A DNA stretch of 64,000 nt from a bacterium (GCA_965207065.1 OZ242260.1:1408001-1472000); one strand, 5' to 3'; positions 12,262-33,238 are shown, counted from the first letter of the stretch. The notes: generated by a model from the sequence alone, not told the origin. Numbers and translations are program-made.

Positions 12262-12343
12262 GTCAGCTCCTCAACAGTGGGCATATTGAAACCCTTGAAC
12301 CGGAGGCAATTTTATCCTCGAATCCATGAACCTGCAAGGATTT

Positions 12344-13645: not shown

Positions 13646-13719
13646 GGATGTCTTCTCCATTTTCGCGGGCCTTGGCCGAACGTGCATTTTACCGCCGGGC
13701 TGCTGTCTGCATATTCTGG

Positions 13720-16662
13720 TCAGGCGATTTGCCTTTTGATCAACTCCTTGAATACCCCGTCGACCTCCTTGAGTTCGTTGAAGGTACCGCTTTGAACGAC
13801 TTTTCCGCCTTGCAGCACGTAGATGCGGTCGGCCTGTTCCAGCGTGGACAGGCGGTGGGCGATGATGAGCCGGGTGGAAGTCAGGTCGGCAAGGTTCCGC
13901 ATTACCTTGGCCTGGCTTTCGTTGTCCAGCCAGTTCGTCGCCTCGTCAAGCAGCATGATTCGCGGGCTGCCGATCACCGAGCGGGCGATCGTGATGCGCT
14001 GACTCTCGCCGCCCGAGAGGACGGACCCGCTGGCGCCCACCATCGTCATCATGCCCATGGGCATGTCCCTGATTTGGGCTTCGACTTCGGCGGTCCGGGT
14101 CGCCGCCCACACTTCCTCGGTCCCCACCGCATCATGGTGGCTGACCAGATTGTCCCAGAGATCTTGTGGATGGAGTCCAACGGATTGCGGCACCGCTCCA
14201 ATTTTCCGGCGCACCTGTTTCAGATTCAGGTGCCTCAGGTCGCGTCCGTCGTAATACACCGCACCGGCGGCCGGCCAGTCGATGCCGAGCGCGAGCCGGA
14301 ACAGGGTGCTCTTGCCGGCGCCGGACTCACCGGCAATCGCGATGAATTCGCCGGGACGGGCGTGAATCGTGACGTCGTCGAGGATCAACGGACCGTCGGG
14401 ATCGTAGCGGAAGGAAATGCGGTCGAACAGTATTTCACCGCCCAGGAATTCAACCGGCTCTCCTTCCGTCACGGTTTCAGGAACGGCGGAGAGAAGCGGG
14501 CGCATCTGCTCGAACGCCGGCCGCATGGCGGCAATGGCGCCGAAGGACTCGCCGAGCCGGGCGATGGCGGACTGGAAAACGATAAAGACCGTGTAAACGA
14601 CGAGAAAATCGCCGACCGGTATGTCCCGGTCTCCCGTCGCCGCCACCGCGAAAAGCAGAACCCCGCCGGCAAAAAAGGGAAGCGCGGCGCCGAATGCCCG
14701 CGAATGTCCCTCAAGCGCGCCCAGTTCAATCTCTGCGCGTTTCTGCTCGCGATAATCCCTCGCCCAGATGGCATAGGCCGACCCTTCCGCATTATCCATT
14801 CGCAGCTTGGAGATGCCTCCCACGAGCTGGAACAGCCGACCGGCTACACGCCGCGCCGCGCTGATCATCCGCCCATAAGGTGAAATCTGGCGCAACCCGA
14901 GGACTACGGCGACCAGCAGCGAAGCCAGGCTGAAGACGAGGGTGATGAGGCCGAGGGTGGCGTCGTAGAAGAAAATGACGCCAAAAACCGGAAGCAGAAA
15001 AATAATCGACAAAAAGCTGTTGGCGACGATTCCCCGCAAGCCGTCGCGAAGGTTCTGGAACGTCATCCCCGACATTGCCAGATCTCCGGCGGGATGGCGG
15101 TGCAGAATGCTTGACGGAAGGCGCATGAGACGGTCCCAGAAGGCGGCTTCGACCCGGGAAGCCGAGCGCCCCTCGAGCCGCATCATCGCCGTGCTTTGGA
15201 ACAGTTGCAGGAGAGCGCCGAGCAGACCGAACGCCGCTAACGCCACGGCGACGGTATAGAGCGTTCCTGTGCTTCCGCCCGCTAAAATTTCATTCGCAAC
15301 GAATCCGAGCGCGAGCGCCGGCAGCAGCTTGATCATGCCGTATGGAAGCCCGGCAATGACCAGACGCGCCAAATCCGCGGCCGACCCGCGCAGGGCGATT
15401 CTTAGCAGGTCTGCCAGTTTCACGTTCTCCGGCGGCAATGGCCGATAGAACATCCAGGCTTCTCCCTCCAGCGCGCCCGCGCGGTCCGCCGTGACCCGGC
15501 GGCTGCGTTTGCTGACCGGGTCGATTTCCCGGTATCGCCCGAACATTCCCGGCAACAGCGCCACTGGCTGGCCGTCCTCGGCGCGGAACGCCAGCATCGC
15601 GTTGCTGTCGCCGCGCCACCAGCTGCCCTCGGCTTTGAACCGCACGCGCCGGGCGCGTAAGCCCGACGCATCGAGAACCTCGACGAGGCCGACCGGAGAA
15701 TCGGAAAGTCCCGCACGCGCCGGAATCTTGAAATCGATTCCTTCATGGCGGCCGATGAGTTGCAGGGCATCCGCCAGCGCCGTGTCCTCGACACTGGCGT
15801 CCCGGTCGATCGGAAGGTCATAGATGTTGAACAGCCGCTGCCGCGCGGCTTTTTCCGCCGTGCGGCGGCTGGTAGTCCGCGCGCGTTCGAGATTGACGTC
15901 ATCGACCACGACCAGTCGGCGGTTCAGGCGTTCCAGGGAAAAAGCAACCGCGTGAAAAGAGGCGAGCGCCGGCAGCAGCGTGCCTTGCTCCGCCAGGGTT
16001 TCGGTTGATAAGCCCGTCAGCGTCGCTTCGTCGAACAAGGCGAGCCAGCTTGTGCGCGTCAGCGGAATAACGGCGTCGTGCGGGCCGCTCGCCTCCGCCA
16101 GTTCCGCCGGGTCGACGATACCCATGAACAGGCTCGCGCCGCGCGGCGGTTCGGATACCCATACCACGCCGCGCCGTACGGATAGCGTACAAGGGGCCAG
16201 GGTCTGCGTCCGACCGGGTTCGGCCAGCGCGGTCGGGCGCGGAAGGGGGCTTGCGAAACGGGACAGTGTTTCAGCAATGGCGATCAGCCAGGTATCGGTC
16301 TGTTCCGCCAGTTCCGCCGGATGGACCCGGGACAGCAGGGAAGCCGGCAGACGTTTCAAAATGGTGCCCGGCAGTCCTTTGGCGATGATGCTGAGCGTAT
16401 TGTCTTCGTCACCCTCTCGCTGGTCCGGCGACACGCCCGGCAGCAGCCAGCCCGACTCCCGGCGCAGCAGATGCTGCGGCGCCGCCTGCTCCACCCCGTC
16501 CTTGAGTTCGGCGAGGAACAGATTGACGGCGCCCTGATCGATGAACCAGACGCTGTCCGGGTCGTCGAGCTTGACCGGCAGGTTGCCGGCGCAGGGTACG
16601 GACGCGCCGAAGCGAGCGGCGAGTTCGGCGATGGACGTGTATTCCGGCTTTGTGTGCTGCAT
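13720..16662 (-). CDS. NHLP-system export ABC transporter, permease/ATPase subunit
   Basis: Long N-terminal extension, TM domain, Walker A GESGAGKS, signature LSGGESQR, LLDEAT, IAHRLST; coupled to the upstream gene. Confidence 0.92.
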   Translation of the reverse strand: MQHTKPEYTSIAELAARFGASVPCAGNLPVKLDDPDSVWFIDQGAVNLFLAELKDGVEQAAPQHLLRRESGWLLPGVSPDQREGDEDNTLSIIAKGLPGTILKRLPASLLSRVHPAELAEQTDTWLIAIAETLSRFASPLPRPTALAEPGRTQTLAPCTLSVRRGVVWVSEPPRGASLFMGIVDPAELAEASGPHDAVIPLTRTSWLALFDEATLTGLSTETLAEQGTLLPALASFHAVAFSLERLNRRLVVVDDVNLERARTTSRRTAEKAARQRLFNIYDLPIDRDASVEDTALADALQLIGRHEGIDFKIPARAGLSDSPVGLVEVLDASGLRARRVRFKAEGSWWRGDSNAMLAFRAEDGQPVALLPGMFGRYREIDPVSKRSRRVTADRAGALEGEAWMFYRPLPPENVKLADLLRIALRGSAADLARLVIAGLPYGMIKLLPALALGFVANEILAGGSTGTLYTVAVALAAFGLLGALLQLFQSTAMMRLEGRSASRVEAAFWDRLMRLPSSILHRHPAGDLAMSGMTFQNLRDGLRGIVANSFLSIIFLLPVFGVIFFYDATLGLITLVFSLASLLVAVVLGLRQISPYGRMISAARRVAGRLFQLVGGISKLRMDNAEGSAYAIWARDYREQKRAEIELGALEGHSRAFGAALPFFAGGVLLFAVAATGDRDIPVGDFLVVYTVFIVFQSAIARLGESFGAIAAMRPAFEQMRPLLSAVPETVTEGEPVEFLGGEILFDRISFRYDPDGPLILDDVTIHARPGEFIAIAGESGAGKSTLFRLALGIDWPAAGAVYYDGRDLRHLNLKQVRRKIGAVPQSVGLHPQDLWDNLVSHHDAVGTEEVWAATRTAEVEAQIRDMPMGMMTMVGASGSVLSGGESQRITIARSVIGSPRIMLLDEATNWLDNESQAKVMRNLADLTSTRLIIAHRLSTLEQADRIYVLQGGKVVQSGTFNELKEVDGVFKELIKRQIA

Positions 16663-18872
16663 CAGCCCGACCTGACCAGCTTGTAGTACGCACCGTCCCG
16701 ATCCGCGATCAACTCGTCGTGGGTGCCGCGTTGCACGGTGACGCCTTTGTCGAGCACGATAATTTCATCGCAATCCCGCACGGTGCTCAGCCGGTGCGCC
16801 ACGATCAGGCAGGTGACGCCGCGCCGCCGCAGGGCTTCATCGACTAGTTCCTCCGTTACGGCATCGAGTGCGCTGGTGGCCTCGTCCAGAATGAGCACCG
16901 TCGGATTGCCCACCAGCGCACGGGCGATTTCCAGGCGTTGCTGCTGGCCGCCGCTGAAATTCGCGCCGCCTTCTTCGACGAGGGTCGAGTACCCTTGCGT
17001 TCGAAGCAGGATTTCGTCATGGATTTGGGCATCCCGTGTGGCGGCGAAGAGGACTTCATCCGGGACGGCCGGGTTCCACAACGTGATGTTGTCGCGCAGG
17101 GACGCGGAAAAGAGCACGATCTCCTGGTCCACCATGGATATGGACTGCCGCAGCACTTCCTCTGGAATCTGATCCCGCAGATGATCATCAAACAGGATTT
17201 CGCCCGACCAGGGCGGATAGACACCCGATACCAGCCGCGCCAGTGTCGACTTGCCGGAACCGCTTGGACCGACCACGGCAACGCGCTGCCCCGGCTTGAT
17301 CACGAGGTTGAAGTCCTTTATCAAAGGTGGCCGGCTCTTGTTGAAACCGAAGGTGAGGTTTCGCAGTTCGAGCTGGCCTGCAAGCTGGAGCCGACCGTTG
17401 AACGTGGGGATTGACTCCGGTTCCGGATTTCGGCGACTGAAAACGGGGTCTTCATCGGTTTTGGAGATGTCCTCGAGACGTTGCATATCGGTTTCGAGCG
17501 CCTGGCGGTTTTCGGCAAACTCCAAAAAACGCCTGACGGGGGCCAGAAACATCTCGGCCAGGATGTAGAACCCGACCAGCGTCCCCAGGGTCATTTCTCC
17601 GGTCATGACCAAACCGCCCCCGATGCCGAGAATCGCCGCGCTGCGGAGCGCGTCGACCAGCCCCGGAAGCGAGGTGCTGATGGAGCCCAGTTCGGAATAG
17701 AGCTGGCGCGCACGCAACTCACGCGCCTGTTGACCGCTCCAGCGCGAAAAGAAACGGTCATCCGATCCCGTCATGCGCAGATTGTCGGAATGACTCAGCA
17801 TCTGCATGCCGAGGCCGATCAGCAGTCCCTGCTCGCGCCTCATCGCCTGGCTTCGGACAGCCCGAAGGGCGTTGAGAAAGTGGGCTAGCATTCCGTGCAG
17901 AAGGGCCAGCAAAAGCACGATCAGCGTGAGCAGGATATCGTAGGCGAACATCGCCATGAGCAACACCACGCTCATCGCCATGTCGATAATGAGAACCAGA
18001 AACTGGTCCGCCAGATTCCTGGCGATTCTGTCGGTGGACGAGACCCGGTCGGTCAGGTCGCCCGCCAGTCTGTGTTCGAAAAACTCCACCGGCAACCGCA
18101 GCAGACGTGACACGCTGCGACTGAAGCCAATCACCGATACCCGGACGGCGAGCCGCTTGAGGAATCGGTGCTTGAACAGGGACAGGACGTATACCAGGAG
18201 GCCGCCGCCGAGCAAGGCGGTCACCAATCCGCCCCAGGATCCGTGTTTTTCGATGACATCGTCGACGAAAACACCGAGAGATGCGGGAATAATCAACGTC
18301 AATAGCGTCAGCATGAGTCCGCAGGCAATCACCCCGGTAAGCAAATTCCATGATCCGGCGAGCAGGGCGCCCAATTGCCTGAACAAGTCGGGCCGCTCGC
18401 CCCCGGGCTTGAAATCAGCGCCGCGCTTGAAGCGAAGCGCAATGCCGCTGTAGTCCTTGTAGAACTCTTCGGCGGAAATCCTGCGCCGCCCCGTGGAAGG
18501 GTCATTGAGATGGAAATGACGGCCATCGAATCCATCGAGGACGACGAAATGGCTGAATTGCCAGAACAGAATCAAAGGCAACTGCAGCATTTTCAGTTGA
18601 TCGGCGCGTGCGCTGAGCCCGCTGCATTCGAGGCCATAGTGTCGGGAGGCGCGCAAGATGCTTGCGGCGCTGCTGCCGTCCCGGCTCACCTCGCATTTTT
18701 CGCGCAATTCGGTAAGCGGCACCCATCGCCCGAAGTAGGCCAGTACGATGCCGAGACAGGCGGCGCCGCATTCCGACGCGTGCATCTGCAACAGAATCGG
18801 TGTGGTCACCTTCCGTTTCGATACGTCCGAAGAGGCCTTGTCCCCGGCGTCTTTGGAAGCGGCCGTCGGCAT
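16662..18872 (-). CDS. NHLP-system ABC transporter with N-terminal C39 peptidase
   Basis: QMHASECGAACL, HFVV, LNDP (C39 triad), GPSGSGKS, FSGGQQQR, LDEATS. Confidence 0.94.
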   Translation of the reverse strand: MPTAASKDAGDKASSDVSKRKVTTPILLQMHASECGAACLGIVLAYFGRWVPLTELREKCEVSRDGSSAASILRASRHYGLECSGLSARADQLKMLQLPLILFWQFSHFVVLDGFDGRHFHLNDPSTGRRRISAEEFYKDYSGIALRFKRGADFKPGGERPDLFRQLGALLAGSWNLLTGVIACGLMLTLLTLIIPASLGVFVDDVIEKHGSWGGLVTALLGGGLLVYVLSLFKHRFLKRLAVRVSVIGFSRSVSRLLRLPVEFFEHRLAGDLTDRVSSTDRIARNLADQFLVLIIDMAMSVVLLMAMFAYDILLTLIVLLLALLHGMLAHFLNALRAVRSQAMRREQGLLIGLGMQMLSHSDNLRMTGSDDRFFSRWSGQQARELRARQLYSELGSISTSLPGLVDALRSAAILGIGGGLVMTGEMTLGTLVGFYILAEMFLAPVRRFLEFAENRQALETDMQRLEDISKTDEDPVFSRRNPEPESIPTFNGRLQLAGQLELRNLTFGFNKSRPPLIKDFNLVIKPGQRVAVVGPSGSGKSTLARLVSGVYPPWSGEILFDDHLRDQIPEEVLRQSISMVDQEIVLFSASLRDNITLWNPAVPDEVLFAATRDAQIHDEILLRTQGYSTLVEEGGANFSGGQQQRLEIARALVGNPTVLILDEATSALDAVTEELVDEALRRRGVTCLIVAHRLSTVRDCDEIIVLDKGVTVQRGTHDELIADRDGAYYKLVRSG

Positions 18873-18873
18873 C

Positions 18874-19425
18874 TTATGATCGCCTCATTCGAAACAGCGT
18901 GATCGGAGATTGCCTGCCGAGCTCGATGACGAACCGGCATTTCCTGCCCTTCAGGGAATCCGAATCCACACTTTCTTCGAGCGCGATATCGACGCGGAGC
19001 AGGGACACCGGCGCCGCGGACTCAAACGCCGCCTGCCCCCCGGAGAAAGGCACGGCGGAAATCGCCCTGACCTTTCCGGCAAGCGCGCCTGTTTTTCCGT
19101 CCGCCGTATCCGGCTCTATCACCACCGGCATCCCGGCCTCGATACGTGGAGCGATATCGCTGTCGACCCAGACGAGGGCCCGCACGGACCGGCCGCCCCC
19201 GGGCGAGTTTTCGCCTTGCTCGACCACTACGCCGTCCACCGCGAGACTACGGGCCACGCTGCCAAAGAAGAGCCATGCACAGAGGATGCACAGAACAAGA
19301 GCGATTGCGGCGACAAGCAGACGCTCCCGCGGCGTTGAAATCGTCAGCAACCGGTCGAGTTGCTCGCGTTCTTCCTTCGCTTCGGCGACAATATTATGAA
19401 AAGAATCGAATGGATTATTGAACAC
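18874..19425 (-). CDS. Short NHLP-system secretion adaptor (HlyD/MFP-like)
   Basis: EQLDRLLTISTPR followed by a TM helix and a barrel part (GMPVVIEP, GKVRAIS, QSPI); directly upstream of the two ABC genes. Confidence 0.8.
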   Translation of the reverse strand: MFNNPFDSFHNIVAEAKEEREQLDRLLTISTPRERLLVAAIALVLCILCAWLFFGSVARSLAVDGVVVEQGENSPGGGRSVRALVWVDSDIAPRIEAGMPVVIEPDTADGKTGALAGKVRAISAVPFSGGQAAFESAAPVSLLRVDIALEESVDSDSLKGRKCRFVIELGRQSPITLFRMRRS

Positions 19426-19857: not shown

Positions 19858-21150
19858 CTAGCAGCTCAGCCCCTGGGACATCTGGCAATAACTGGAGAGA
19901 GGGAAAAACGCCAACGTCCGATTCCAGTCCGATTTGTCAATGACCGACTGGTTCATCAGTTCGATCATTTCGTCGAATTTGCGGAGCGCGTCGCAATCCA
20001 CCACCTCGGGATCCACCACCTTGCGGTGTCGAGGCCAGGCGTTGTCTCGAGCGTGGCGCCAGAATCCGCTGTCGTATCTGGAGCCACAGGAATAGTGCCA
20101 ACCGACGAATAAGCCGAAGCAGAGCATGGTATTGGTGAGGAATCGATTGACCACCAGAGCATCGCGTTCGAGATATTCTACCGAACGGTTAAGGCGTAAA
20201 TGGAGAACCATCCCGACCTCTACCTGTGCGGATACGATCGCCGTTGCTTCGAGGGGTTCCATGAAGGCGGCTGCGTTGCCGATGCGAGCCACCGCGCCAT
20301 CGTACATGTGACGATGGATAAAATTGGGAAACGGAATGACGGCGCGCTGCTCGAACTCCGATACGCCATCGGTCTCGAGGAAAGCGTCGAAATCCGATTC
20401 GACTTCGTCGAGGCCGGATACGTCGCGGTTGAAGATGTACCCGTAGGATGTGTGCGCTGTAAGCGGAATAACGACTATCCAACCGTGCGGACGCGCAACC
20501 GCGCGGGTATAGGTAGGTTGCAGAAACGGGCCGTCCTGCTCTTTTTTGACGATTGCAGGGCAGCGGCGGATGACGGCCGTATTCGTGGGGATGAAAGAGA
20601 GGTCGATGTGCCGGTCCGGGTCTAGTTCTGCGGGAAAGCCCCGGGCATCAAAGACCAAATCGTAGCGTTCCGCCGGCCGGCCCTCGAATTCCACTTGCGC
20701 GCCGCCTTCCACCCTGGTGATACCGGTTACTTTCGCGTCGATGCGGCTCGCGCGCGTGCTTTCATGCAGCAGGTCCGCCATCAAGTCGACGGACAGATGG
20801 TAGGCGTAGGACACCTGTTGCGGCGTGAAATAGTGGGTGAAGTCGCGATTGCGCCGACCCCATCCCTCGAATGTTACACCGTACTTGCGCGTTCCTTTCA
20901 GGCGCTGCTGGACTGTTTCATGGGGAAGATTCGTAAGTTGACACAAATCCTGCACGAGACTCGGCCAGCTGCCTTCGCCTACTCCGAGGGCCGGGATGCG
21001 CGAATCATAGATGTGATGCAGCTCGTGGTCGCTCTCGGGTAGAAGACGAGTCACATTGGCGGCCGCAAGGGACCCTGCGGTTCCCCGCCCGACAACCGCG
21101 ATCTTCCGTAATGATTTAGCGCCCGGCTGTATCATCCTACTCACTTTCAC
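19858..21150 (-). CDS. srpI: Flavin-dependent tryptophan halogenase family, SrpI-like peptidyl brominase
   Basis: VVGRGTAG, GVGEGS, catalytic Lys region GTRKYG, GWIVVIP, IGNAAAFMEPLEAT; within an LCCCW cluster; start may be the ATG at 21135. Confidence 0.85.
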   Translation of the reverse strand: MKVSRMIQPGAKSLRKIAVVGRGTAGSLAAANVTRLLPESDHELHHIYDSRIPALGVGEGSWPSLVQDLCQLTNLPHETVQQRLKGTRKYGVTFEGWGRRNRDFTHYFTPQQVSYAYHLSVDLMADLLHESTRASRIDAKVTGITRVEGGAQVEFEGRPAERYDLVFDARGFPAELDPDRHIDLSFIPTNTAVIRRCPAIVKKEQDGPFLQPTYTRAVARPHGWIVVIPLTAHTSYGYIFNRDVSGLDEVESDFDAFLETDGVSEFEQRAVIPFPNFIHRHMYDGAVARIGNAAAFMEPLEATAIVSAQVEVGMVLHLRLNRSVEYLERDALVVNRFLTNTMLCFGLFVGWHYSCGSRYDSGFWRHARDNAWPRHRKVVDPEVVDCDALRKFDEMIELMNQSVIDKSDWNRTLAFFPLSSYCQMSQGLSC

Positions 21151-21508: not shown

Positions 21509-21895
21509 TTATTCGGGGCGCAGCAGGCTTTTGGCCTTATCCCCTTCCGGCGTCACGGCCAGCACCTCGAGACTCGGCCGCGCGGGGCTCCTCGTGAGGA
21601 GGAGTTCCACGGGCTCGTCGAGCGCCATGATCTCGTGCACCTCGCCGGGGCGGAACTGCACCAGATCCCCCGGCGCGGCTTCCAGAATCTCTCCTTCCAC
21701 GGCGATGCGGAGCCCGCCCTTCAGGAGATAGAGGAACTGCTCGTCATGGTGATAATGCGGGTTGGAATGGCCCCTCGCCTCCATGCGGAAATATCCGATG
21801 GTGGTGTGAGCGCCATCGACCCACGCGGCGTCTGCGGTCACGTAGTCGGCGGCCTTTCCCTGGTTCTGAGCGGCGAGATTTCTGTAAATCGGCAT
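21509..21895 (-). CDS. Cupin domain protein
   Basis: PHYHHDEQFLYLLKG...PGEVH; AGGAG RBS. Confidence 0.85.
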   Translation of the reverse strand: MPIYRNLAAQNQGKAADYVTADAAWVDGAHTTIGYFRMEARGHSNPHYHHDEQFLYLLKGGLRIAVEGEILEAAPGDLVQFRPGEVHEIMALDEPVELLLTRSPARPSLEVLAVTPEGDKAKSLLRPE

Positions 21896-22046
21896 GGAAT
21901 GAACTCCTGTAGATGAGGTGATGACCGAAGATGGAACCTCAGGCGTATTCTAACGGCATGGACTCGCAATCTGTCCAGCCCCCATGTATATTTGTGCGGC
22001 AAAACAGGCGTTTCCCTCACTTCAAAAAGTTATTCGGAGGCATTTC

Positions 22047-23081
22047 GTGAGCGCCCCATCGGTGGATGAATTCGAGTATTTCTTCGATAAACCCTGGTCG
22101 GACGGCCTGCCGGTCATCCCCCCGACGGAAGAGCGTCTGGGCCAAATGCTTGCAGGAACGAGCCGTGATCCGGACGAAGTAATCGGCGACGTACCTCCGT
22201 TACTGGCGCAGGCGGACGTTCGGACCATTGCCGTTCATGCCATTATGGCAGGGTGCAAGCCGGCGTATATGCCCGTTCTCATCGGGGCCGTGGAAGCCAT
22301 TCTGGAGGAAAAGTTCAACGTGGGCGGCGTGCAGGCGACGCTCTCTTGCGCTGCTCCACTTTTGATAGTTAACGGCCCTTACGCCAGGGAAATCGGTTTA
22401 CACGGCGGGCTGGGCTGTTTCGGCCCCGGGAATCGCGCCAACGCGACGATTGGCCGCGCCATCAGGCTTTTGCTCCTCAATATCGGCGGCGGAATTCCGG
22501 GTATCACCTCGATGAGCACGTTCTCGCAACCGGGGAGGTTCACGTACTGTATCGCCGAAAATGAAGCGGAAAGCCCCTGGGAGTCTCTCGCTCAGACGAA
22601 TGGTTTTGATGCGGAGGATAACGTTGTCACCGCCGTGCATGTGGAAGGTCCCGTCATGTCCTGGGATGACGTGAGCGACGACCCCGAGCGGATGTTGCCC
22701 TCCATCGCGGACACCATGTCGCATCTGGGTTCGTGGAATTGTTGGGCCAGCACCGATTTGGTGGTCGCGATGAGCCCGCAGCAGGCCGCGATTTGCGCAA
22801 AGAGGGGGTATTCAAAGGCGGATGTCCATGGACGCCTTTGCGAAATCGCAGGCCGTTCGGTGGGCGAACTCAAAACGGGAGGTCATTTCCGGGAAAATCG
22901 TATTCAGGATTTTCCGATCCCCGTCGATCTGGATGATGACGATGCGTTTGTTCCGACGATTAAAGAAGCCCGGAGACTGCTCTTGATCGTGGCGGGCGGG
23001 GTTCCGGGGCCGATAACGGCCGTGATGCACGGCTGGAACGGCAGCAGCCGTTCGGTTTCTCGCGCATTTGAATCGTCATGA
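22047..23081 (+). CDS. UGSC-associated DGLP domain protein (array copy 1)
   Basis: DEFEYFFDKPWSDGLPVIPPT, AGCKPAY, GPGNRANATIGRA; GTG start behind GGAGG. Confidence 0.85.
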   Translation: MSAPSVDEFEYFFDKPWSDGLPVIPPTEERLGQMLAGTSRDPDEVIGDVPPLLAQADVRTIAVHAIMAGCKPAYMPVLIGAVEAILEEKFNVGGVQATLSCAAPLLIVNGPYAREIGLHGGLGCFGPGNRANATIGRAIRLLLLNIGGGIPGITSMSTFSQPGRFTYCIAENEAESPWESLAQTNGFDAEDNVVTAVHVEGPVMSWDDVSDDPERMLPSIADTMSHLGSWNCWASTDLVVAMSPQQAAICAKRGYSKADVHGRLCEIAGRSVGELKTGGHFRENRIQDFPIPVDLDDDDAFVPTIKEARRLLLIVAGGVPGPITAVMHGWNGSSRSVSRAFESS

Positions 23082-23104
23082 TATCCACTTCTTTCAATGG
23101 GTGA

Positions 23105-24139
23105 ATGGCTTTGAGCGAACCTCTGGATGAATTCGAGTTTTTTCTGGAAAAACCCTGGTCGGACGGCTTGCCCGTCGTTACCCCGACCGAAGAGCGCATT
23201 GAGCGCATGCTCTCGGGCACGAAGAGAAGTCCAAGCGAGTTCATAGGTCTCGTTCCTCCGGCCATGGGCGAGGCCACGGTCCATAGTGTGGCGGTCCATG
23301 CGGTAATGGCCGGCTGCAAGCCCGAGTATTTGCCGATCGTTCTCGGCGCCACCTCCCTTATGCTTCGCGATGAGTTCAACACGAACGGCGTGCAGGGCAC
23401 GATGCACGGCGTAGCGCCCCTCATGATCGTTAACGGCCCCTATTCCGAGCAAATCGGGGTTCACGGAGGAAATGGCTGCTTTGGCCCCGGCTTCAGATCC
23501 AACGCTTCCATCGGCCGCGCCATTCGCCTGATTCTGATGAACCTGGGCGGGGGCATTCCGGGTGTTTCTTCCATGACGATTTTCGGCACGCCGCTGCGCT
23601 ATACCGCGTGCGTAACGGAGAACCTTCAGTTTCATCCCTGGGAGACGCTCGCTGAATCCAGAGGATACGGATCGGATGAAAATGTGATCACCATGGCCAT
23701 GGTGGAAAGTCCGCGCCTGACCTTCGATGACGTAAGCGAGGAGCCCGAAAGGCTGCTCCGGGGAATCGCCGATGCGATGACGGGCCTGGGCTCATGGAAC
23801 ATGCACGCGCCCAGGACCGATATGGTCGTCGCCATGAATCCCCAGCATGCGAAAATTTGTTCCGAGGGCGGTTTTACTCGCTCGGACGTGCATCGGCGTC
23901 TTTGCGAATTGGCGGGCCACAAGGTGAAGGATCTGAAGCGGGGCGGCAACTGGCGGCGCGAGCGCGCGCTGGATATGTATATTCACGTAGACCCCGATGA
24001 CGATGAATTTTTCGTTCCCGTCATCAAGGACCCCCGTGATCTCCACTTGATCGTTGCGGGCGGCTGGGGATCGGGGAGTGCGGTCTGCCACGGCTGGAGC
24101 GGTGGCAGCCGCGCCGTTCATGGGGCCTATGAAGTGTAG
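23105..24139 (+). CDS. UGSC-associated DGLP domain protein (array copy 2)
   Basis: DEFEFFLEKPWSDGLPVVTPT, AGCKPEY, GPGFRSNASIGRA. Confidence 0.85.
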   Translation: MALSEPLDEFEFFLEKPWSDGLPVVTPTEERIERMLSGTKRSPSEFIGLVPPAMGEATVHSVAVHAVMAGCKPEYLPIVLGATSLMLRDEFNTNGVQGTMHGVAPLMIVNGPYSEQIGVHGGNGCFGPGFRSNASIGRAIRLILMNLGGGIPGVSSMTIFGTPLRYTACVTENLQFHPWETLAESRGYGSDENVITMAMVESPRLTFDDVSEEPERLLRGIADAMTGLGSWNMHAPRTDMVVAMNPQHAKICSEGGFTRSDVHRRLCELAGHKVKDLKRGGNWRRERALDMYIHVDPDDDEFFVPVIKDPRDLHLIVAGGWGSGSAVCHGWSGGSRAVHGAYEV

Positions 24140-24180
24140 CGCCGGAATCTCCACGACAGTCAGAGTGGTATCAGATTTCT

Positions 24181-25197
24181 ATGGATGAATTCGAATTTTT
24201 CTTTCAAAAATCCTGGTCGGACGGCCTGCCGGTAATCCCACCAACCCAGGAACGGATGGCCGCCATGCTCTCGGGCACGAGACTCGGGGCTTCCGAAATC
24301 ATTGGCCTGGTGCCGCCCCTCATGGGGGAGGCCGGCGTCGAAGCGGTTGCCGCGCACGCCGTGATGGCGGGGTGTGAACCTTCGTATATGCCTGTCGTCA
24401 TTGCTGGGCTTAGAGCGCTTCTTGCGCCGGAACTCAACTTGAACGGCGTACAGGGCACCATGCACAGCGCAGCCCCTCTAATCATCGTGAATGGTCCATA
24501 TGCGAAAATAATCGGACTGCATGGCGGAACGGGATGCTTTGGTCCGGGATTTCGGGCGAATGCGACAATCGGCCGCGCCATCCGGCTTATTCTCATGAAC
24601 CTGGGCGGCGGTGTGCCGGTTTTCGCCTCGATGAGCACGTTCGGTTCACCTGCCAGATATACGTTTTGTATCACCGAGAATGAAGCGGAAAGTCCCTGGG
24701 AGCCGTTGTCCGTCGCGCGAGGGTTTCATCGGGATGACGATGTTGTAACCGCCGTGATGACGGAAGCGCCTCAAGGATATATCGATGATTATTCCAAGGA
24801 CCCGGAATCTTTTTTTGTGGGCTTGGCGGATAAAGTATCCACCCTGGGCTCGCTGAACATCTGGCTGAAAACCCAGGTGGTCGTTGCTTTGGGTCCGGAT
24901 CATGCGCGCATGTGCGCAGCGGCTGGTTTGAGCAAGGAAGATGTTCATCGCCGGATTATGGAACTTGCGTGTAGACCCCTGGGAGAGCTGAAAAAATCGG
25001 GCTATTGGCGAGAGGAGATGATAGCCAAGTGGCCATTTCACGTGGCCCTGCAGGATGATTCTTTTATGGTACCGGCGATCAAGGATGAAGACGATTTGAT
25101 ACTTCTCGTCGCAGGGGGTACGCCCGGACCGGTTACGTTCGTCATGCCCGGCTGGGTGGACGGCAGCGAGGCGGTATCGGCGGACTATCAACCATAA
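24181..25197 (+). CDS. UGSC-associated DGLP domain protein (array copy 3)
   Basis: MDEFEFFFQKSWSDGLPVIPPT, AGCEPSY, GPGFRANATIGRA. Confidence 0.85.
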   Translation: MDEFEFFFQKSWSDGLPVIPPTQERMAAMLSGTRLGASEIIGLVPPLMGEAGVEAVAAHAVMAGCEPSYMPVVIAGLRALLAPELNLNGVQGTMHSAAPLIIVNGPYAKIIGLHGGTGCFGPGFRANATIGRAIRLILMNLGGGVPVFASMSTFGSPARYTFCITENEAESPWEPLSVARGFHRDDDVVTAVMTEAPQGYIDDYSKDPESFFVGLADKVSTLGSLNIWLKTQVVVALGPDHARMCAAAGLSKEDVHRRIMELACRPLGELKKSGYWREEMIAKWPFHVALQDDSFMVPAIKDEDDLILLVAGGTPGPVTFVMPGWVDGSEAVSADYQP

Positions 25198-25232
25198 GCC
25201 TTCCTGCCAGGCTTGCTTTTGAGGATGAACGC

Positions 25233-26252
25233 ATGGATGAGTTTGAGTTTTTCTTTGATAAAGAATGGTCGGACGGCCTGCCTGTCGTGACCCCGACGGA
25301 AGAGAGGATTGGTCCGATGCTCTCGGGCACGAGGAGGGAGCCGGGCGAAGTACTCGGCCACGTGGCTCCGGCGGGCGGGGAACTCAGTATACAAGGGGTG
25401 GCGGCCCACGCCGTGATGGCGGGTTGTAAGCCTGAATACATGCCGGTGCTGATAGCCGGCCTGGAAGCGCTTCTCGATGAGCGTTTTAACGTAAATCTGA
25501 TTCAGGCCACGACGAGCGCGGGCGCTCCTTTTCTGTTGGTGAATGGTCCTTATGCAAGGGAAATCGGGCTGCACGGGGGCGTAGGCTGCATGGGACCCGG
25601 CTACCGCGCGAACCTGACCATCGGCCGCGCCGTCAGGCTCATCATGATGAATGTGGGAGGAGGCATTCCCGGAATCACCTGTCTCGGCGGTTTCGGAGGT
25701 CCCTGGCGAAGCACTTTTTGCATCATGGAGAACGAGGAGGAATCCCCTTGGGAGTCGTATGCGGAATCGAAAGGGTATTCCAGGAGCGATAACGTGGTGA
25801 CCATGATTCCTCTCGAAGGTCCGGTGCAGGTATGGGACGATGCGAGTCTGACTCCTGACCGGCTCCTGACGACGGTTGCCGATATGATGTCGGCATTGGG
25901 CGGTCCCAATATGTATCGGCAAGCGGATATGGCGGTTGTCCTGGGTGCGCAACATGCGCATCTGTGCGCCGACGCCGGGCTGACCCGCAGCGATGTCCAT
26001 CAAAAATTATTGGAAACGGGTGGGCGTACTATCGGGGATATCAAGCGCGGCGGCATCTGGCGAGGCGAGAAAGGCGCGGATCGCTGGCCATTTCCCGTGG
26101 ATGTGAATGATGATGATTTTTTTGTGCCTTCGGTCGGGGAGCCCGACGATCTTCATTTGATCGTCGCGGGGAGCAGGGGTTCACCTTCCAGCATGGTCAT
26201 GCACGGAATTACCGTGGCGTGTCGGGCTGTGACTAAAAAATTTGACGTGTGA
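25233..26252 (+). CDS. UGSC-associated DGLP domain protein (array copy 4)
   Basis: MDEFEFFFDKEWSDGLPVVTPT, AGCKPEY, GPGYRANLTIGRA. Confidence 0.85.
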   Translation: MDEFEFFFDKEWSDGLPVVTPTEERIGPMLSGTRREPGEVLGHVAPAGGELSIQGVAAHAVMAGCKPEYMPVLIAGLEALLDERFNVNLIQATTSAGAPFLLVNGPYAREIGLHGGVGCMGPGYRANLTIGRAVRLIMMNVGGGIPGITCLGGFGGPWRSTFCIMENEEESPWESYAESKGYSRSDNVVTMIPLEGPVQVWDDASLTPDRLLTTVADMMSALGGPNMYRQADMAVVLGAQHAHLCADAGLTRSDVHQKLLETGGRTIGDIKRGGIWRGEKGADRWPFPVDVNDDDFFVPSVGEPDDLHLIVAGSRGSPSSMVMHGITVACRAVTKKFDV

Positions 26253-26373
26253 AAAATTTCTTTTCCGGGTGGGTTCGGAGCGTAGGCTGGATTTTGCATT
26301 CAGTATCAAATTCGAAGGCAGAATCTATCTCATCTTAATTTGTTAAAGTTGGAATGTTTTAGTGCGCTTCTTT

Positions 26374-26411
26374 ACAAAAGAGCCCCGGCATTATTGCCGG
26401 GGCTCTTTTGT
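26374..26411. terminator. Bidirectional intrinsic terminator
   Basis: ACAAAAGAGCCCCGGCA-TTAT-TGCCGGGGCTCTTTTGT perfect inverted repeat between convergent genes. Confidence 0.9.
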
Positions 26412-26423
26412 GATCGACGCTTG

Positions 26424-28685
26424 TTAATGGCCGTTGCTATTGCCGTTTTTCTTCATGACCGCCCGGCAAACACGCTCGGGCGTAATGGGCAAATCGTAGA
26501 CTTCCGTGCCTATCGCATCATTGATGGCGAGGGCGACGGCGGCAGGCGCATTATTGCATGGAGGTTCTCCGACGCCGCGTGCGCCATATGGGCCTGCGCC
26601 CTCTCCACATTCAAGAACAACAGACTCAAACTCACCGATATCCGAGGAAGTGGGAATCAGATACTCGTGAAAGCTTTGTGATCGGCAGTCTCCTTCCACC
26701 ATGGTGATTTCCTCGTGCAGCGCATAGCCAATCCCCATCACCGCGCCGCCTTCGAATTGCCCCTCCACGCTTTGAGGATTCAGCGCGCGCCCGACGTCAT
26801 GGGAGGCGATGTGCTTCAAGAGATTCACTTCGCCGGTTTCGATATCGACTTCCACTTCGCTCGCATGAACGCCAAAAGTGTAGTCCGACCATCCGCCCAT
26901 GCCGTTCATATATCGCTCCGGATTCTCGTATTCATGGCCCGGCATGTTGTAGCCATGTGTGCAATGTAGCGCCTCACCCATTTTTTTGGCTTCGCCGGCC
27001 GCTGCACCGACGCCGACCCTTCTCTCGGGAGCGGAGGCCACCCACGCCTCGCCGCCTCCCACGCGAATGTCCTCTGCTGCAGCTTCGAGCAACGAGGCAG
27101 CGCCTTTGGTCACGGCTTTTCGAACCTCATCAGCGGCAAGTTGAACGGCGTGCCCCGCCATGAGTGTCTGGCGGGAACCCGCAGTGATGCCCGAGAGTGG
27201 CGTAGTAGCTGAATCGGACAAACGGGTGGAAACCTGATCGAGCCTGAGCCCCAGGGTTTCAGCCGTGATGCTTTGAAGGGTAGCGCCCTGGCCGGCGCCT
27301 ATATCCGGCGCGCTCACACGTACCACGGCGCTGCCATCCGGCTCGAGGTGTACCGCCGCATTCGCGTCGTCATTCGGCCTTCCGTAGCCGGTAATGTTCG
27401 CGGCCGCCGCCCGGCCGATACGTTTTCCCGGAGCTGGTTCTGTGGGTTTACCCAGGGCCTGTAGCGCGCTGTCGAGGCATCCTTCCAGGTTCGGTTCGTA
27501 AGGTATCTTCTGTCCGGTCGGCAGTTCCTGTCCTTTCTGGATGAAATTTTTCCGCCTGAATTCGTACTTGTCCAACCCGAGGGCATCTGCAACCAGGTTC
27601 ATTTGAGTCTCATATGCGAAGCAGACCTGGTTTGATCCAACGCCGCGCATCGCGTTGGTGATGGGATTGTTCGTGAGATAGCCGTGCGCACGAATTTTTA
27701 CGTTGGGTACATCATAAGGGCCCGCGGCGATGCACATCGCGCCCAGGAGGAACAAATTGGATTTATACGGATAGGCGCCAGCATCTCCTACGATATCCGC
27801 CTGAACGGCCAGGATTTTCCCGTCCCTGGTCGCTCCTGTTTTGTACTTCATATAGAAAGGATGTTTTTTCGAGGTGTTTCTAATGCCGTGCTCGCGGCCC
27901 AATACCATGACGGCGGGCCTTTGCGTATGCCAGGTGAGCAGCGCCAGGTAAGGTTCTACGGTCAGCATGCCCTTGGCGCCGAACCCGCCGCCGACGTAAG
28001 TGCCGAGGTGCCGGACGCGGCTATGCGAGATTCCTAAAATCGCCGCAATGGCGCGGTAGTATTCGATAAGCTGTGTGCCGACGCGGATGGTGATGACGCC
28101 GTCTTCTTCCATCCAGGAAGTACCGGAGGCCGGTTCCAGGAAGGCGTGTTCGGCAAGTTGCGTGGTGTATGTTTTCTCAATCACCACGTCGGCTTCGTCA
28201 AATGCTGTCTTCAAGTCTCCGCGAGTAACCTCAAAATCACATGCTTGTCGTTTTTCGGCGCTTGTTTCATCGTGACGCGTTGTCCACACGCCCTCTTCCG
28301 CCTCGATTTCCACTTCAATGGCCGCTATCGCGGCATCAAGCGCTTCTCTGTTTTCGGCTCCTACGATGGCGAGAGCGTCTCCGGTGAATTCAATTTTATC
28401 TTCCACCAGAACAGGCTGATGGGGCAGGCCCGGTGTGCCGGAGCCGAATCGCGCGTTTGTGCCCGGAATATCCTTTGCAGTCAGAATGGCGGCTACGCCC
28501 GGGATTTTTTCGGCTTTTGAAGTGTCGATTTTTTTCAGGCGGCCGACCGGGATGGGTGTAAACAATACGCCGCACTGCAGAGCCCCTGCAGGAACTGCAT
28601 CTTCTCCGTAGGGCATAGAGCCATCCGCTTTCGGAATCGCGTCGTATCGAACATTCGACTTGCCGATGATATCGTAATCGGCCAT
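26424..28685 (-). CDS. Xanthine dehydrogenase-family molybdopterin-binding (large) subunit
   Basis: EHAFLEP, VGGGFGAK, AMRGVG, DIGAGQG, AGSRQT, EGQFEGG, GARGVGEP; AAGGAG RBS before ATG at 28685. Confidence 0.92.
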   Translation of the reverse strand: MADYDIIGKSNVRYDAIPKADGSMPYGEDAVPAGALQCGVLFTPIPVGRLKKIDTSKAEKIPGVAAILTAKDIPGTNARFGSGTPGLPHQPVLVEDKIEFTGDALAIVGAENREALDAAIAAIEVEIEAEEGVWTTRHDETSAEKRQACDFEVTRGDLKTAFDEADVVIEKTYTTQLAEHAFLEPASGTSWMEEDGVITIRVGTQLIEYYRAIAAILGISHSRVRHLGTYVGGGFGAKGMLTVEPYLALLTWHTQRPAVMVLGREHGIRNTSKKHPFYMKYKTGATRDGKILAVQADIVGDAGAYPYKSNLFLLGAMCIAAGPYDVPNVKIRAHGYLTNNPITNAMRGVGSNQVCFAYETQMNLVADALGLDKYEFRRKNFIQKGQELPTGQKIPYEPNLEGCLDSALQALGKPTEPAPGKRIGRAAAANITGYGRPNDDANAAVHLEPDGSAVVRVSAPDIGAGQGATLQSITAETLGLRLDQVSTRLSDSATTPLSGITAGSRQTLMAGHAVQLAADEVRKAVTKGAASLLEAAAEDIRVGGGEAWVASAPERRVGVGAAAGEAKKMGEALHCTHGYNMPGHEYENPERYMNGMGGWSDYTFGVHASEVEVDIETGEVNLLKHIASHDVGRALNPQSVEGQFEGGAVMGIGYALHEEITMVEGDCRSQSFHEYLIPTSSDIGEFESVVLECGEGAGPYGARGVGEPPCNNAPAAVALAINDAIGTEVYDLPITPERVCRAVMKKNGNSNGH

Positions 28686-28879
28686 TTGTCTGCTCCTTAA
28701 GGTAAGAGGATATCCGTGAATTAGATTTGATTCTGCCAAATTTCGGCGAAACTGAGAAGCGGATAAAACATCATTTGTTTTTTTCATATAAAATTGATTG
28801 GGCTGATATCGTAGACAAGGAATAAATTGCGGGATATGATTTGACTTCGGTTGAATTCACATATCAATTGGAGAAAACC

Positions 28880-29410
28880 ATGGCGAACGGAATGGGATTC
28901 ATTGATCCGACGGCGGGAGGGTCGGCCGCGCGAATCGAGCTTGCGCAAAGGCCCGGCGATCTTTCGGGTAAGGTGGTGGGGCTCCTCGACAACACCAAAG
29001 AACAAGCGGATATCATTTTGGAAACCTTGGGGAATGCCCTCCGCGAGCAATACGACGTGGCCAGAGTCATTTCGATGCGAAAAGAGCATTACTCGAAGCC
29101 TGCCACTGATGAAATGATCGAAGAAATGGCCCAGGAGGTGGATGTGGCGATAGCCGCATTGGGAGGCTGAGGCTCCTGCACGTTGTGCAGTGTGCACGAC
29201 ACGGTTGAATTTGAAAAACGGGGCATTCCTTCAACGACCATCATCACCGAGGCGTTCAAGAACGCGGCGGACTTTCAATTCCGTGGCAAGGGCATGGAAG
29301 GGCATCCTTATATTCAGTTGCCTCATCCGGTCAGCAATTTGCAGCCTGATGAAATGAGAGACACGACGCTGAAGTTTGTTGAAGAAGTGGCCGGCCACCT
29401 GAAAAGCTGA
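28880..29410 (+). CDS. UGSC family selenoprotein, 176 aa, Sec UGA at 29168-29170
   Basis: ORFs ending 29170 and starting 29183 are in frame; readthrough gives AALGG-U-GSCTLCSVHDTVEFEKRGIP; homologous to the N-terminal part of 2876-4486; SECIS-like hairpin. Confidence 0.9.
29182..29200 (+). promoter_or_regulatory. Bacterial SECIS-like hairpin
   Basis: UGA + 11 nt + GUUGUGCA-GUG-UGCACGAC (8-bp stem with one U-G pair). Confidence 0.75.
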
Positions 29411-29452
29411 TCCGAATTATAGAGAAAAAGTATTTTCCAGGAGGAAGGGTAC

Positions 29453-30235
29453 GTGCGCGAATTTGAAACAATTTCCTATACGGAAGAAAATGGATTGGCG
29501 GTAGTGAAGTTTAACCGCCCGGAGAGTCTGAACGCGATCAGTTTCAAGATGGCGGAAGAATTCGTGGAATTGGCGCGAACCCTGGCCGACGCGGGGAATG
29601 TGCGTGTGGTCATTCTTACTGGAGAGGGACGTGGTTTCAGCACGGGCCGCGACCTGAAAGAAAGCACCACGCATACGAAGGAGATGGCCGATCAATACCA
29701 GCGCTATGTGATGACGGCGACGTCTCTATGGGCACGCTTGCCAATGCCTACCATCGCTGCGATCAACGGCCATACGTTCGGCTGGGGCGTCGAAATTACA
29801 TTAGTATGCGATATCAGACTGGCCGCTGAAGAAGCCACTCTTTGTTTTCCGGAATGCAGCCTTGGTATTTTCCCGGGGGCCGGCGGCGTAGTCTGGCTTC
29901 AAAGGATCATGCCGGCCGGTCAGGCGAAGGAATTGGTTTACACGAGCAAGCGTATCGATGGAAATGAAGCCGAGCGCATCGGCTTGGTGAATAAGGCGCA
30001 TCCGCTGGATGTGCTGATGGATGAAGCGACAGCCATCGCTGAGAAAATCAGGGACAATGGCCCCTTGGGTGTTCGTGGCGCGAAAAAAGCAATTGATCAG
30101 ACGCTCGATATGCCGCTCTCTCAGGCTATCGAATTTTCAAATGCCCTCAGGTTGCCGTTGAATCACACCAAGGATTTCGCCGAGGCGCTGCAGGCGTTCA
30201 AAGAGAAGAGGAAACCCGTATTTACCGGAGAATAA
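29453..30235 (+). CDS. Enoyl-CoA hydratase/isomerase family protein
   Basis: FNRPESLNA, FSTGRDLK, PTIAAING..GWGVE, FPECSLG, KRKPVFTGE. Confidence 0.92.
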   Translation: MREFETISYTEENGLAVVKFNRPESLNAISFKMAEEFVELARTLADAGNVRVVILTGEGRGFSTGRDLKESTTHTKEMADQYQRYVMTATSLWARLPMPTIAAINGHTFGWGVEITLVCDIRLAAEEATLCFPECSLGIFPGAGGVVWLQRIMPAGQAKELVYTSKRIDGNEAERIGLVNKAHPLDVLMDEATAIAEKIRDNGPLGVRGAKKAIDQTLDMPLSQAIEFSNALRLPLNHTKDFAEALQAFKEKRKPVFTGE

Positions 30236-32686: not shown

Positions 32687-33238
32687 ATGACGCGCCGGGT
32701 GGATAAATGGCGGCAGGGTGAATTGTTCCAGAAAGACGGGGAATCGCTGGAAAATCATGTTGCCGAGTGGCTCCAGAAAGTGCGTGCGGAATTCTCCGTG
32801 TTTGTATCGGATGAAGGTATTGCGGAAATCAGGATGCTGGATGGTGTGGAAAAGCCTCTCGTGGCGGATCATGCGAGGGAGCAATCAACGCCGTTGAGTC
32901 GTCAAGCTTCAAAAGAGATAGAAGAGTATCTGAGGGGCACGCGAAAAAGTTTCAAGTTGAAGGCGGACCTCTCCTCTCTCACGCCTTTCATGATCAAAGT
33001 ACTAAATGAGACGGAAAATATTCCTTATGGCGAGACGCGTTCCTACGGTTGGGTGGCGAATCAGATAGGAAACCCGAAAGCTTCGCGCGCTGTAGGCCAG
33101 GCGTTACATAGAAATCCCGTTCCTCTTGTAATACCATGACACCGCGTCATCGCGGGCTCGGGTGAGCTCGGCGGATTCGCAAGCAGCGTTTCTTTGAAGT
33201 TGGCGCTCCTGTTCCATGAGATGAACCACAAAAGTTAG
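32687..33238 (+). CDS. ogt: Methylated-DNA-protein-cysteine S-methyltransferase with predicted Sec at the active site (PUHRV), 183 aa
   Basis: IPYGETRSY, ASRAVG, NPVPLVIP-TGA-HRVIAGSGELGGF...KLALLFHE; the UGA (33137-33139) sits exactly at the Cys of PCHRV; hairpin 11 nt downstream. Confidence 0.9.
33151..33173 (+). promoter_or_regulatory. Bacterial SECIS-like hairpin
   Basis: UGA + 11 nt + CGCGGGCUC-GGGU-GAGCUC(G)GCG, 9-bp stem with one bulge, G-rich loop. Confidence 0.7.

Follow-up and report, generated by a model that had tools for sequence, protein, structure and literature searches.

A tandem array of four related genes, ARR1 to ARR4, occupies positions 22047-26252 of a 64,000-nucleotide stretch of bacterial DNA (GCA_965207065.1, OZ242260.1:1408001-1472000), hereafter the window. 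We propose, with a probability of roughly 0.6, that the four encoded proteins are fixed alternative catalytic partners, namely isoenzymes, which share in trans one selenoprotein of the UGSC family. The array proteins belong to a family for which we use the working name D. Across many phyla, D is a regular partner of UGSC, either encoded next to it or fused with it. In the following, L-numbers denote fetched loci and P-numbers denote relative proteins.

The array and the D protein family

The four genes, each of 338-344 codons, run head to tail on the plus strand with spacings of 23, 41 and 35 nt. ARR1 (22047-23081) most likely starts at the GTG codon at 22047, which sits 6 nt after a GGAGG at 22036-22040, in a frame that is already open from an ATG at 21984. 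It is followed by ARR2 (23105-24139), ARR3 (24181-25197) and ARR4 (25233-26252). At 26372-26413, 120 nt 3' of ARR4 and 11 nt beyond the end of a convergent gene (26424), lies a hairpin of 19 perfect base pairs that forms a bidirectional terminator common to the array and the convergent gene (-38.7 kcal/mol, z -9.7, none of 200 shuffles equally stable). An earlier account of this DNA, made from the sequence alone and here called the sequence-only reading, had described four tandem genes, 23-41 nt apart, ending at one terminator; the open reading frames (ORFs) and the strong hairpin confirm this layout. Pairwise protein identity among the four copies is 51-57% over 337 ungapped columns. In L049 (10962-11345) and in G010:C4 (1231173-1231559), which possibly represent the same genome, the gap between copies 3 and 4 measures about 385 nt, not 35 nt, and the enlarged gap of L049 contains an ORF of 92 amino acids.

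Scans of all four ARR proteins against Pfam-A and NCBIfam returned no family at an E-value of 1 or better, and among the matches listed no Pfam domain was given for any of 120 homologues, all named ones being "hypothetical". The D family is very large, with 5324 of 8000 scored candidates at an E-value of 0.001 or better. A domain termed "Unknown_1", which is fused to UGSC in ocean reads, was aligned in supplementary Figure S1A of Zhang and Gladyshev 2008 (PMC2398784). Its block, AVNGVMAGCRPEYMP...NGP, reads AVHAVMAGCKPEY.P...VNGP in all four ARR copies, and on account of this match we identify D with the "Unknown_1" domain. The block around the invariant cysteine, A-x-x-A/V-M-A-G-C-x-P-x-Y-x-P ... 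V/I-N-G-P, is present in each of ARR1-ARR4. As far as its available text goes, the 2008 paper offers neither a function nor a neighbor analysis for "Unknown_1" and describes no arrays; likewise, in the available full texts on UGSC and selenocysteine, no paper deals with the D partner family beyond that fusion figure and none assigns a function.

In an alignment of 87 D sequences selected from 113, 15 columns are invariant, including D20-G21-x-P23, A69-G70-C71, P73, P77 and G111-P112. Cys71 (ARR2 numbering, motif MAGC) is the sole invariant cysteine, and a second cysteine is kept in at least 90% of the sequences. All four ARR proteins retain the 15 family-invariant residues, Cys71 among them. 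The ocean fusions of the 2008 paper have the same conserved block (A-V-x-x-V-M-A-G-C-x-P-x-Y-x-P ... N-G-P), the same cysteine and the same association with UGSC, and a fusion of this kind is also present in the window (2876-4486, minus strand). The array differs from them in consisting of four stand-alone tandem copies, with a separate UGSC gene 2.6 kb away.

Linkage of D to UGSC

The link between D and UGSC is visible at the level of single polypeptides. Among 61 D relatives of at least 603 amino acids, 45 carry PF24696 (UGSC), five Pyr_redox-type domains as in thioredoxin reductase and one an AhpC/TSA domain (CPTC), the remaining 10 being without a Pfam domain. CxxC motifs (CAVC, CADC and CATC) are present in the three of the five reductase fusions that were read, P0130, P0132 and P0146.

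To describe gene neighborhoods, D and UGSC were mapped with our own hidden Markov models on 77 loci from other genomes, and 98 D genes were counted; D hits with a score of 300 or lower or a length below 900 nt were left out, for example L041:2-871, L042, L054, L057, L058, L087, L092, the L053 fragments and L029:18160. Forty-four of the D genes in these loci fall outside the clade that holds the array genes (the array clade), and for 42 of these 44 a UGSC gene lies on the same strand within 400 nt. The 54 array-clade D genes are distributed as follows: 20 adjoin UGSC, 28 are found at 1.1-7.6 kb from it, all of these being upstream members of D-D-UGSC units or arrays, four have no UGSC in the locus and two are truncated by a contig end. 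The genome that carries the window has 15 D genes and eight UGSC genes, the latter with one TGA each; for seven of the eight UGSC genes, a D gene either is 60-197 nt away or shares the ORF. When this genome and 20 relatives are compared, 14 of the 21 have both D and UGSC and the other seven have neither, counts that come from kin and are not independent.

The UGSC gene at 28880-29410 (plus strand) lies 2.6 kb downstream of the array, across an opposite-strand gene. Its motif, GGUGSCTLC, is absent from the other seven UGSC proteins of the genome. In the fetched loci, the same motif is found beside array-clade D genes only, and it directly follows the betaproteobacterial sisters of ARR2. Gene order is conserved as well. 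The succession of array, molybdenum (Mo)-binding subunit on the minus strand, UGSC and enoyl-coenzyme A (CoA) hydratase is kept in six relatives and in L043, a contig of Candidatus Tectomicrobia; a fragment in L041 agrees with it. Within this block, the Mo subunit gene (26424-28787, minus strand) is 95-98% identical in the six relatives and 72% identical in L043, and also occurs in L041, and the enoyl-CoA hydratase gene (29453-30235, plus strand; PF00378, 1.8e-61) is 88-94% and 65% identical in the six relatives and L043, respectively. Because its type and gene order are conserved together with the array clade, the UGSC protein encoded at 28880-29410 is likely the partner of the array, acting in trans. 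It may also serve three unlinked clade members encoded near 3.075, 4.402 and 4.430 Mb.

Fusion, adjacency, matching presence and absence and the correspondence between D clade and UGSC type all support the functional link to UGSC that the sequence-only reading had suggested. Its statement that a single UGSC gene lies 2.6 kb away is right about the distance and wrong about the number, with eight such genes in the genome and two in the window.

The UGSC gene and its selenocysteine

Read through its in-frame selenocysteine (Sec) codon, the TGA at 29168-29170, the gene at 28880-29410 lies above the curated thresholds of both NF041046 (148.6 bits, cut-off 125) and PF24696 (172.9 bits, cut-off 25). 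A single TGA is found at the U position in 67 of the 68 full-length UGSC genes from the window and the fetched loci, and the one exception, from Mycobacterium simulans, has a cysteine codon. The genome encodes tRNA-Sec and SelA. Contigs from RNA libraries, which cannot prove transcription or show transcription units, span the UGSC TGA in all four runs, from three studies. An 8-bp hairpin (29182-29200, plus strand), which begins 11 nt after the UGA, is a candidate core of a selenocysteine insertion sequence (SECIS), while the 86-nt stretch after the UGA is not more stable than shuffled sequences (z -0.5). Several RNA-library contigs match 33-37 nt at 29167-29203, covering the TGA, the GSCTLCSVHD codons and the hairpin, at 90% or better and then continue into unlike sequence. 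Other UGSC genes of the community thus share this DNA core, as expected if a SECIS overlaps conserved codons.

The second UGSC gene of the window is part of the UGSC-D fusion ORF at 2876-4486 (minus strand), which encodes about 536 residues. Its UGSC part covers approximately 3959-4462, with the TGA at 4190-4192 and the motif GVUGGCTSW, and a stand-alone D gene (1877-2827, minus strand) lies downstream of the fusion. An ORF of 137 amino acids at 28784-29197 (minus strand) was considered as a neighbor gene and rejected, being antisense to the UGSC gene and without a family match.

Some further observations concern the setting of UGSC genes. In the window, the G+C content falls from about 0.57-0.68 in the first 28 kb to about 0.48-0.54 in the remainder, with the change at about 28000-30000, where the GC skew turns steadily positive and where the UGSC gene sits. 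In a Sulfitobacter contig (L077:6076-11602), the SelA and SelB genes are directly upstream of a D-UGSC pair, such that the Sec machinery and the pair form one block. The Cys-form D-UGSC pair of M. simulans (L090:8929-12985) has a divergent LysR-type regulator on one side and, on the other, a gene for a family III CoA-transferase that starts within the end of the UGSC gene. In L023 and L029, too, such a CoA-transferase is encoded within a few kb of the pair.

Age and phylogeny of the four copies

A quick tree of 113 D sequences under LG+G4 served as the main phylogeny, and a second quick tree, of a chosen 44-row subset under a mixture model, gave the same picture. In the main tree, ARR1-ARR4 fall within one well-supported clade of 61 rows, and each ARR copy forms its own clade with its positional orthologs, seven sequences in all, with a support of 100. 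The sister group of ARR2 consists of 24 betaproteobacterial genes, with a support of 99 (14-24 genes across both trees), and these sisters are D genes next to UGSC; homologs of ARR2 with 72-94% identity are also present in other phyla. ARR4 is sister to the betaproteobacterial L044, with a support of 100. Monophyly of the 16 array sequences in the 44-row subset is rejected by the approximately unbiased (AU) test (p 1.04e-43, delta lnL 178).

Between ARR paralogs, the synonymous distance dS is 1.6-2.5, which is saturated, and the nonsynonymous distance dN is 0.37-0.46. Concerted evolution is not seen: the identity of a copy to its positional ortholog is 91-96%, compared to 51-57% for its array neighbors. 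The dN/dS ratio (omega) against six positional orthologs is 0.06-0.09 for ARR1, 0.04-0.06 for ARR2, 0.08-0.11 for ARR3 and 0.05-0.06 for ARR4. Over 74 columns conserved at 80% or more, the four copies deviate at 2, 4, 7 and 9 positions. Four consecutive array genes were found in all 12 congeneric genomes searched, a set that may overlap with the six related loci.

The sequence-only reading had taken the array for a recently diversified repertoire and had proposed dN/dS and copy-number variation as checks. Neither bears it out: every copy is under purifying selection (omega 0.04-0.11) with loops frozen among orthologs, and copy number does not vary among the 12 congeners. Given 51-57% identity, saturated dS and the AU rejection, the copies are ancient, non-sister lineages, the very outcome that the sequence-only reading had named as contrary to it, and a recent diversification is therefore refuted. 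Judged from these comparisons of sequence, the array is an old and stable arrangement, neither a recent expansion nor homogenized by recombination, and nothing in it is fast-evolving.

Shared DNA words and variable loops

The sequence-only reading further held that short DNA blocks shared by the copies could support recombination. Its two constant words are exact. The 12-mer TGGTCGGACGGC occurs exactly four times in the window, once in each ARR gene, a number reached in none of 100 shuffles, and the 16-mer ATGCTCTCGGGCACGA occurs three times in the window, in ARR2-ARR4. Both the 12-mer in all four copies and the 16-mer in three exceed what independent codon draws give (p 0.004 and p 0.006, respectively), and identical residues use the same codon in 41-46% of cases compared to 37.8% expected from pooled codon usage. 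These figures are what speaks for a recently diversified substrate repertoire with scaffolds kept alike by exchange between DNA blocks, an explanation that we nevertheless consider highly improbable, the least probable of those discussed here.

The remaining evidence runs the other way. Third-position identity between ARR copies is only 0.37-0.43, and the longest identical run per pair is 16-22 nt, the maximum of 22 nt being within codon resampling (p 0.078). RecA-type exchange usually needs 20-odd nt, and words of 12-16 nt are shorter than this. The 12-mer, which codes for the invariant W-S-D-G, is not confined to the array: an unlinked paralog of the same genome (L002) has it, as do D genes from Burkholderiales, Tectomicrobia and an alphaproteobacterium. 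Some array copies of relatives lack an intact 12-mer. The 16-mer is present in three copies only in this genome; one copy has it in L018 and L021, and none in L017, L019, L020 and L049. It arises by one or two synonymous changes per copy, and its flanks are immediately unlike. Together with copies that are not monophyletic, frozen loops and an invariant copy number, these gene-conversion tests are negative. We attribute both words to preferred codons falling on conserved residues, not to gene conversion.

The variable loops were read correctly from the outset: QATLSC/QGTMHG/QGTMHS/QATTSA (loop A, 97-102), MSTFS/MTIFG/MSTFG/LGGFG (loop B, 155-161) and SWNCW/SWNMH/SLNIW/GPNMY (loop C, 228-233) in ARR1 to ARR4. 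Loop A of each copy is identical in seven of seven genomes, and loops B and C vary by single substitutions at most. The loops of ARR2 recur in betaproteobacterial genes of 64-74% overall identity, and those of ARR4 recur in L044. The loops are stable paralog-specific signatures, which fits distinct specificities or distinct roles of the four proteins.

Proposed function and alternative explanations

We propose that each D protein acts as a catalytic or substrate-binding subunit, in which the cysteine would cooperate with the selenol/thiol pair, U-x-x-C, of UGSC. This pair would form and resolve either a selenenyl-sulfide or a substrate adduct, with electrons supplied by a thioredoxin-type system. 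UGSC would then be the selenol/thiol redox part of one reductase, and the four array proteins would be isoenzymes for different substrates, with the paralog-specific loops setting what each of them binds.

The main rival explanation assigns the four copies to a single enzyme. Here ARR1-ARR4 would be subunits of one hetero-oligomer working with UGSC, and the loops would be subunit interfaces or divided parts of an active site. Such an enzyme would account for the unchanged set and order of the four genes in all six related loci and all 12 congeneric genomes (sets that may overlap), and the spacing of 23-41 nt fits coupled expression. Two D domains are joined in a single chain in the tandem fusion P0125, with P0126-P0128 in the same length class, and D-D-UGSC units occur in the Burkholderiales loci L023, L024 and L046. 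However, all four copies keep the invariant cysteine and the 14 other invariant residues, whereas in many heteromers built from paralogs some subunits lose catalytic residues. Moreover, ARR2-like genes stand as single D-UGSC pairs in most betaproteobacterial loci. We regard the hetero-oligomer as rather unlikely, though it is the strongest competitor to the isoenzymes.

Several results count against isoenzymes that share one UGSC. A hetero-oligomer would agree equally well with the D-D fusions and with the invariant order of the four genes. Adjacency is missing at the array itself, as an opposite-strand gene and the terminator separate it from UGSC; the two are therefore not one transcript. 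The array-clade paralogs near 3.075, 4.402 and 4.430 Mb have no UGSC nearby, nor do the orthologs in L045, L048 and L050 and the gene in L044 within 10 kb on each side (in L044, to the contig end), so that D might not need UGSC, or might work with it solely in trans. In a Pfam survey of 142 neighbor ORFs from 15 loci, no single conserved third gene was found; the neighbors are lineage-dependent, the recurrent ones being TctC, CoA-transferase III, TauD, MmgE/PrpD, enoyl-CoA hydratase and acyl-CoA dehydrogenase. RNA-library contigs on the array amount to three short pieces in two of four runs and leave most of it uncovered, which is not evidence of silence. For the Cys-form D-UGSC pair that occurs naturally in M. 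simulans (L090), a pair distinct from the window's own proteins, the predicted complex scored 0.38 compared to 0.03 for the best control, which lends weak support. The mark was reached by 116 of 157 solved complexes and two of 215 mismatched pairs, counts that are only approximate because our own alignments were used; among scores of 0.60 or lower, it was reached by 18 of the 157 solved complexes and by both mismatches. The runs of this pair have at least 82% of contacts in common, with a partner predicted local distance difference test score (pLDDT) of at least 84. Finally, the ARR2 model finds no close counterpart among solved structures (best Foldseek E-value 7.6e-4 with a template modeling (TM) score of 0.25; best VIA Z 5.0, none reaching 8), a missing match that is not proof of a new fold.

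Some of these points would also be explained if the array proteins acted without UGSC, for example with the Mo hydroxylase and CoA-ester enzymes, UGSC being a mere neighbor. The convergent gene and the terminator preclude co-transcription with UGSC, seven array-clade genes or orthologs (the three paralogs of the same genome, L044, L045, L048 and L050) lack UGSC nearby, and the orphan D gene of L050 has a second, distant Mo-subunit gene at a distance of 3.6 kb. Yet the GGUGSCTLC type is found only with the array clade and has a sole representative in this genome, a UGSC gene of exactly this type comes immediately after the betaproteobacterial sisters of ARR2, and the block of array, Mo subunit and UGSC is kept in two candidate phyla. 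We hence judge independence from UGSC improbable, much more so than the hetero-oligomer, and retain the isoenzymes sharing UGSC in trans as the preferred explanation.

Predicted structures and comparison with known systems

The AlphaFold2 model of ARR2 has a pLDDT of 92.8 and a predicted TM-score (pTM) of 0.91. Its weak, scattered matches include the folds of class I (Fe-S) fumarate hydratase and L-serine dehydratase. They include the best Foldseek hit, 7xky_A (E 7.6e-4, TMq 0.25, root-mean-square deviation (RMSD) 17.5), and 6mso, 4rqo and 2iqq, all of the fumarate hydratase/serine dehydratase type, with VIA Z values of 3.4-3.9, where a Z of 3.9 corresponds to an RMSD of 5.9 over 182 aligned residues. 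These TM and Z values are within the range of chance arrangements. The three-cysteine cluster site is not conserved in D, as the family has one invariant cysteine and one at 90% or more. A sequence-profile search of the PDB with D gave nothing better than an E-value of 0.16, and a search of the ESM Atlas gave only unnamed clusters. As D has no clear structural or PDB sequence relative, its chemistry and substrate are deduced only from its fusions and neighbors.

The UGSC model (pLDDT 95.8) is a beta-alpha-beta sandwich, in which Sec97 sits at the start of the helix spanning residues 98-113. Redox-active CxxC pairs usually occupy such a helix start. The best matches of the model are flavodoxin-like alpha/beta proteins with a TM-score of up to 0.53, which is a generic fold match only. 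The "likely Trx-like fold" given for UGSC in the 2008 paper (PMC2398784) is not borne out by the fold matches listed.

A weak alignment connects UGSC with GrdB, GrdH, GrdF and PrdB in their C-terminal region, where Sec is located (E-values from 5.7e-4 to 0.15). In the glycine, sarcosine and betaine reductases and the D-proline reductase, the substrate-specific selenoproteins GrdB, GrdF, GrdH and PrdB with their partner proproteins make up "protein B". Against the models TIGR01917, TIGR01918, TIGR04483 and NF040794/5, UGSC reaches 11.5-18.9 bits, far below the cut-offs of 65-800 (18.9 compared to 602), over about 40-90 residues around Sec, and D matches none of the Pfam or NCBIfam models of the Grd/Prd partner proteins. 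The likeness to these reductases consists in a U-x-x-C selenoprotein paired with a larger partner and in a link to a thioredoxin-type donor, here via fusions; in addition, several partner paralogs could be substrate-specific modules. In contrast to the Grd/Prd systems, nothing at D-UGSC shows a pyruvoyl group or a selenoprotein A.

Other genes of the window

Upstream of the array lies a divergent gene for a cupin-domain protein (21509-21895, minus strand; PF07883 Cupin_2, 7.8e-13), which is found at 86-98% identity upstream of the array in all six related loci. The Mo subunit encoded between the array and UGSC is xanthine-dehydrogenase-like and matches MoCoBD_1, MoCoBD_2 and Ald_Xan_dh_C. It is a lone subunit: the gene scores under the equivalog cut-offs, and no gene for an Fe-S or flavin adenine dinucleotide (FAD) subunit adjoins it. 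At least nine further paralogs of the protein, of 28-44% identity, are encoded in the genome.

A gene resembling methylated-DNA-protein-cysteine methyltransferase is located at 32687-33238 (plus strand). Its ORF stops with a TGA (33137-33139) exactly at the expected active-site cysteine; read through, it gives ...VIPUHRV... and continues to a TAA. The gene is probably the Sec form of a selenoprotein family already covered in reviews, and in relatives (L019) it is kept downstream of an acyl-CoA dehydrogenase gene. At 7547-19425 (minus strand) lies a cluster of the type that makes ribosomally synthesized and post-translationally modified peptides. It comprises a YcaO/TOMM cyclodehydratase, a 447-amino-acid protein with an N-terminus resembling an NHLP leader, a fatty-acid-desaturase/GlnE-like fusion, two ABC transporters, one of which has a C39 peptidase domain, and a short HlyD-like ORF of the NHLP system. 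The cluster is followed by a tryptophan-halogenase-like gene at 19858-21150.

Implications

Since 2007-2008, UGSC has been counted among the selenoprotein families that are most abundant in aquatic metagenomes, and in the available texts of papers and reviews up to 2026 its function is described as unknown or largely uncharacterized (PMC1976440, PMC2398784, PMC9312934, PMC13188914). We tentatively suggest, as a possibility well short of even odds, that D and UGSC constitute an undescribed class of selenium-dependent, thioredoxin-powered reductase, in which the small, Sec-bearing UGSC module would be shared in trans by several substrate-specific catalytic modules. The four-gene array and the three unlinked clade members would then provide seven substrate channels on one selenoprotein, in an architecture built like the "protein B" of the Grd/Prd reductases from unrelated parts. 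The only local hints at a substrate are the Mo subunit and the enoyl-CoA hydratase; if the suggestion is true, these two conserved neighbors, a Mo hydroxylase and an enoyl-CoA hydratase, would indicate that organic acids or heterocycles are broken down with reductive steps.

A partner family with one invariant cysteine and with fusions to thioredoxin reductase makes the function of UGSC approachable at the bench. With its 4:1 ratio of D to UGSC, or 7:1 genome-wide, the locus would offer a natural case of one UGSC serving several partners, and of the residues that set the choice of partner or substrate.

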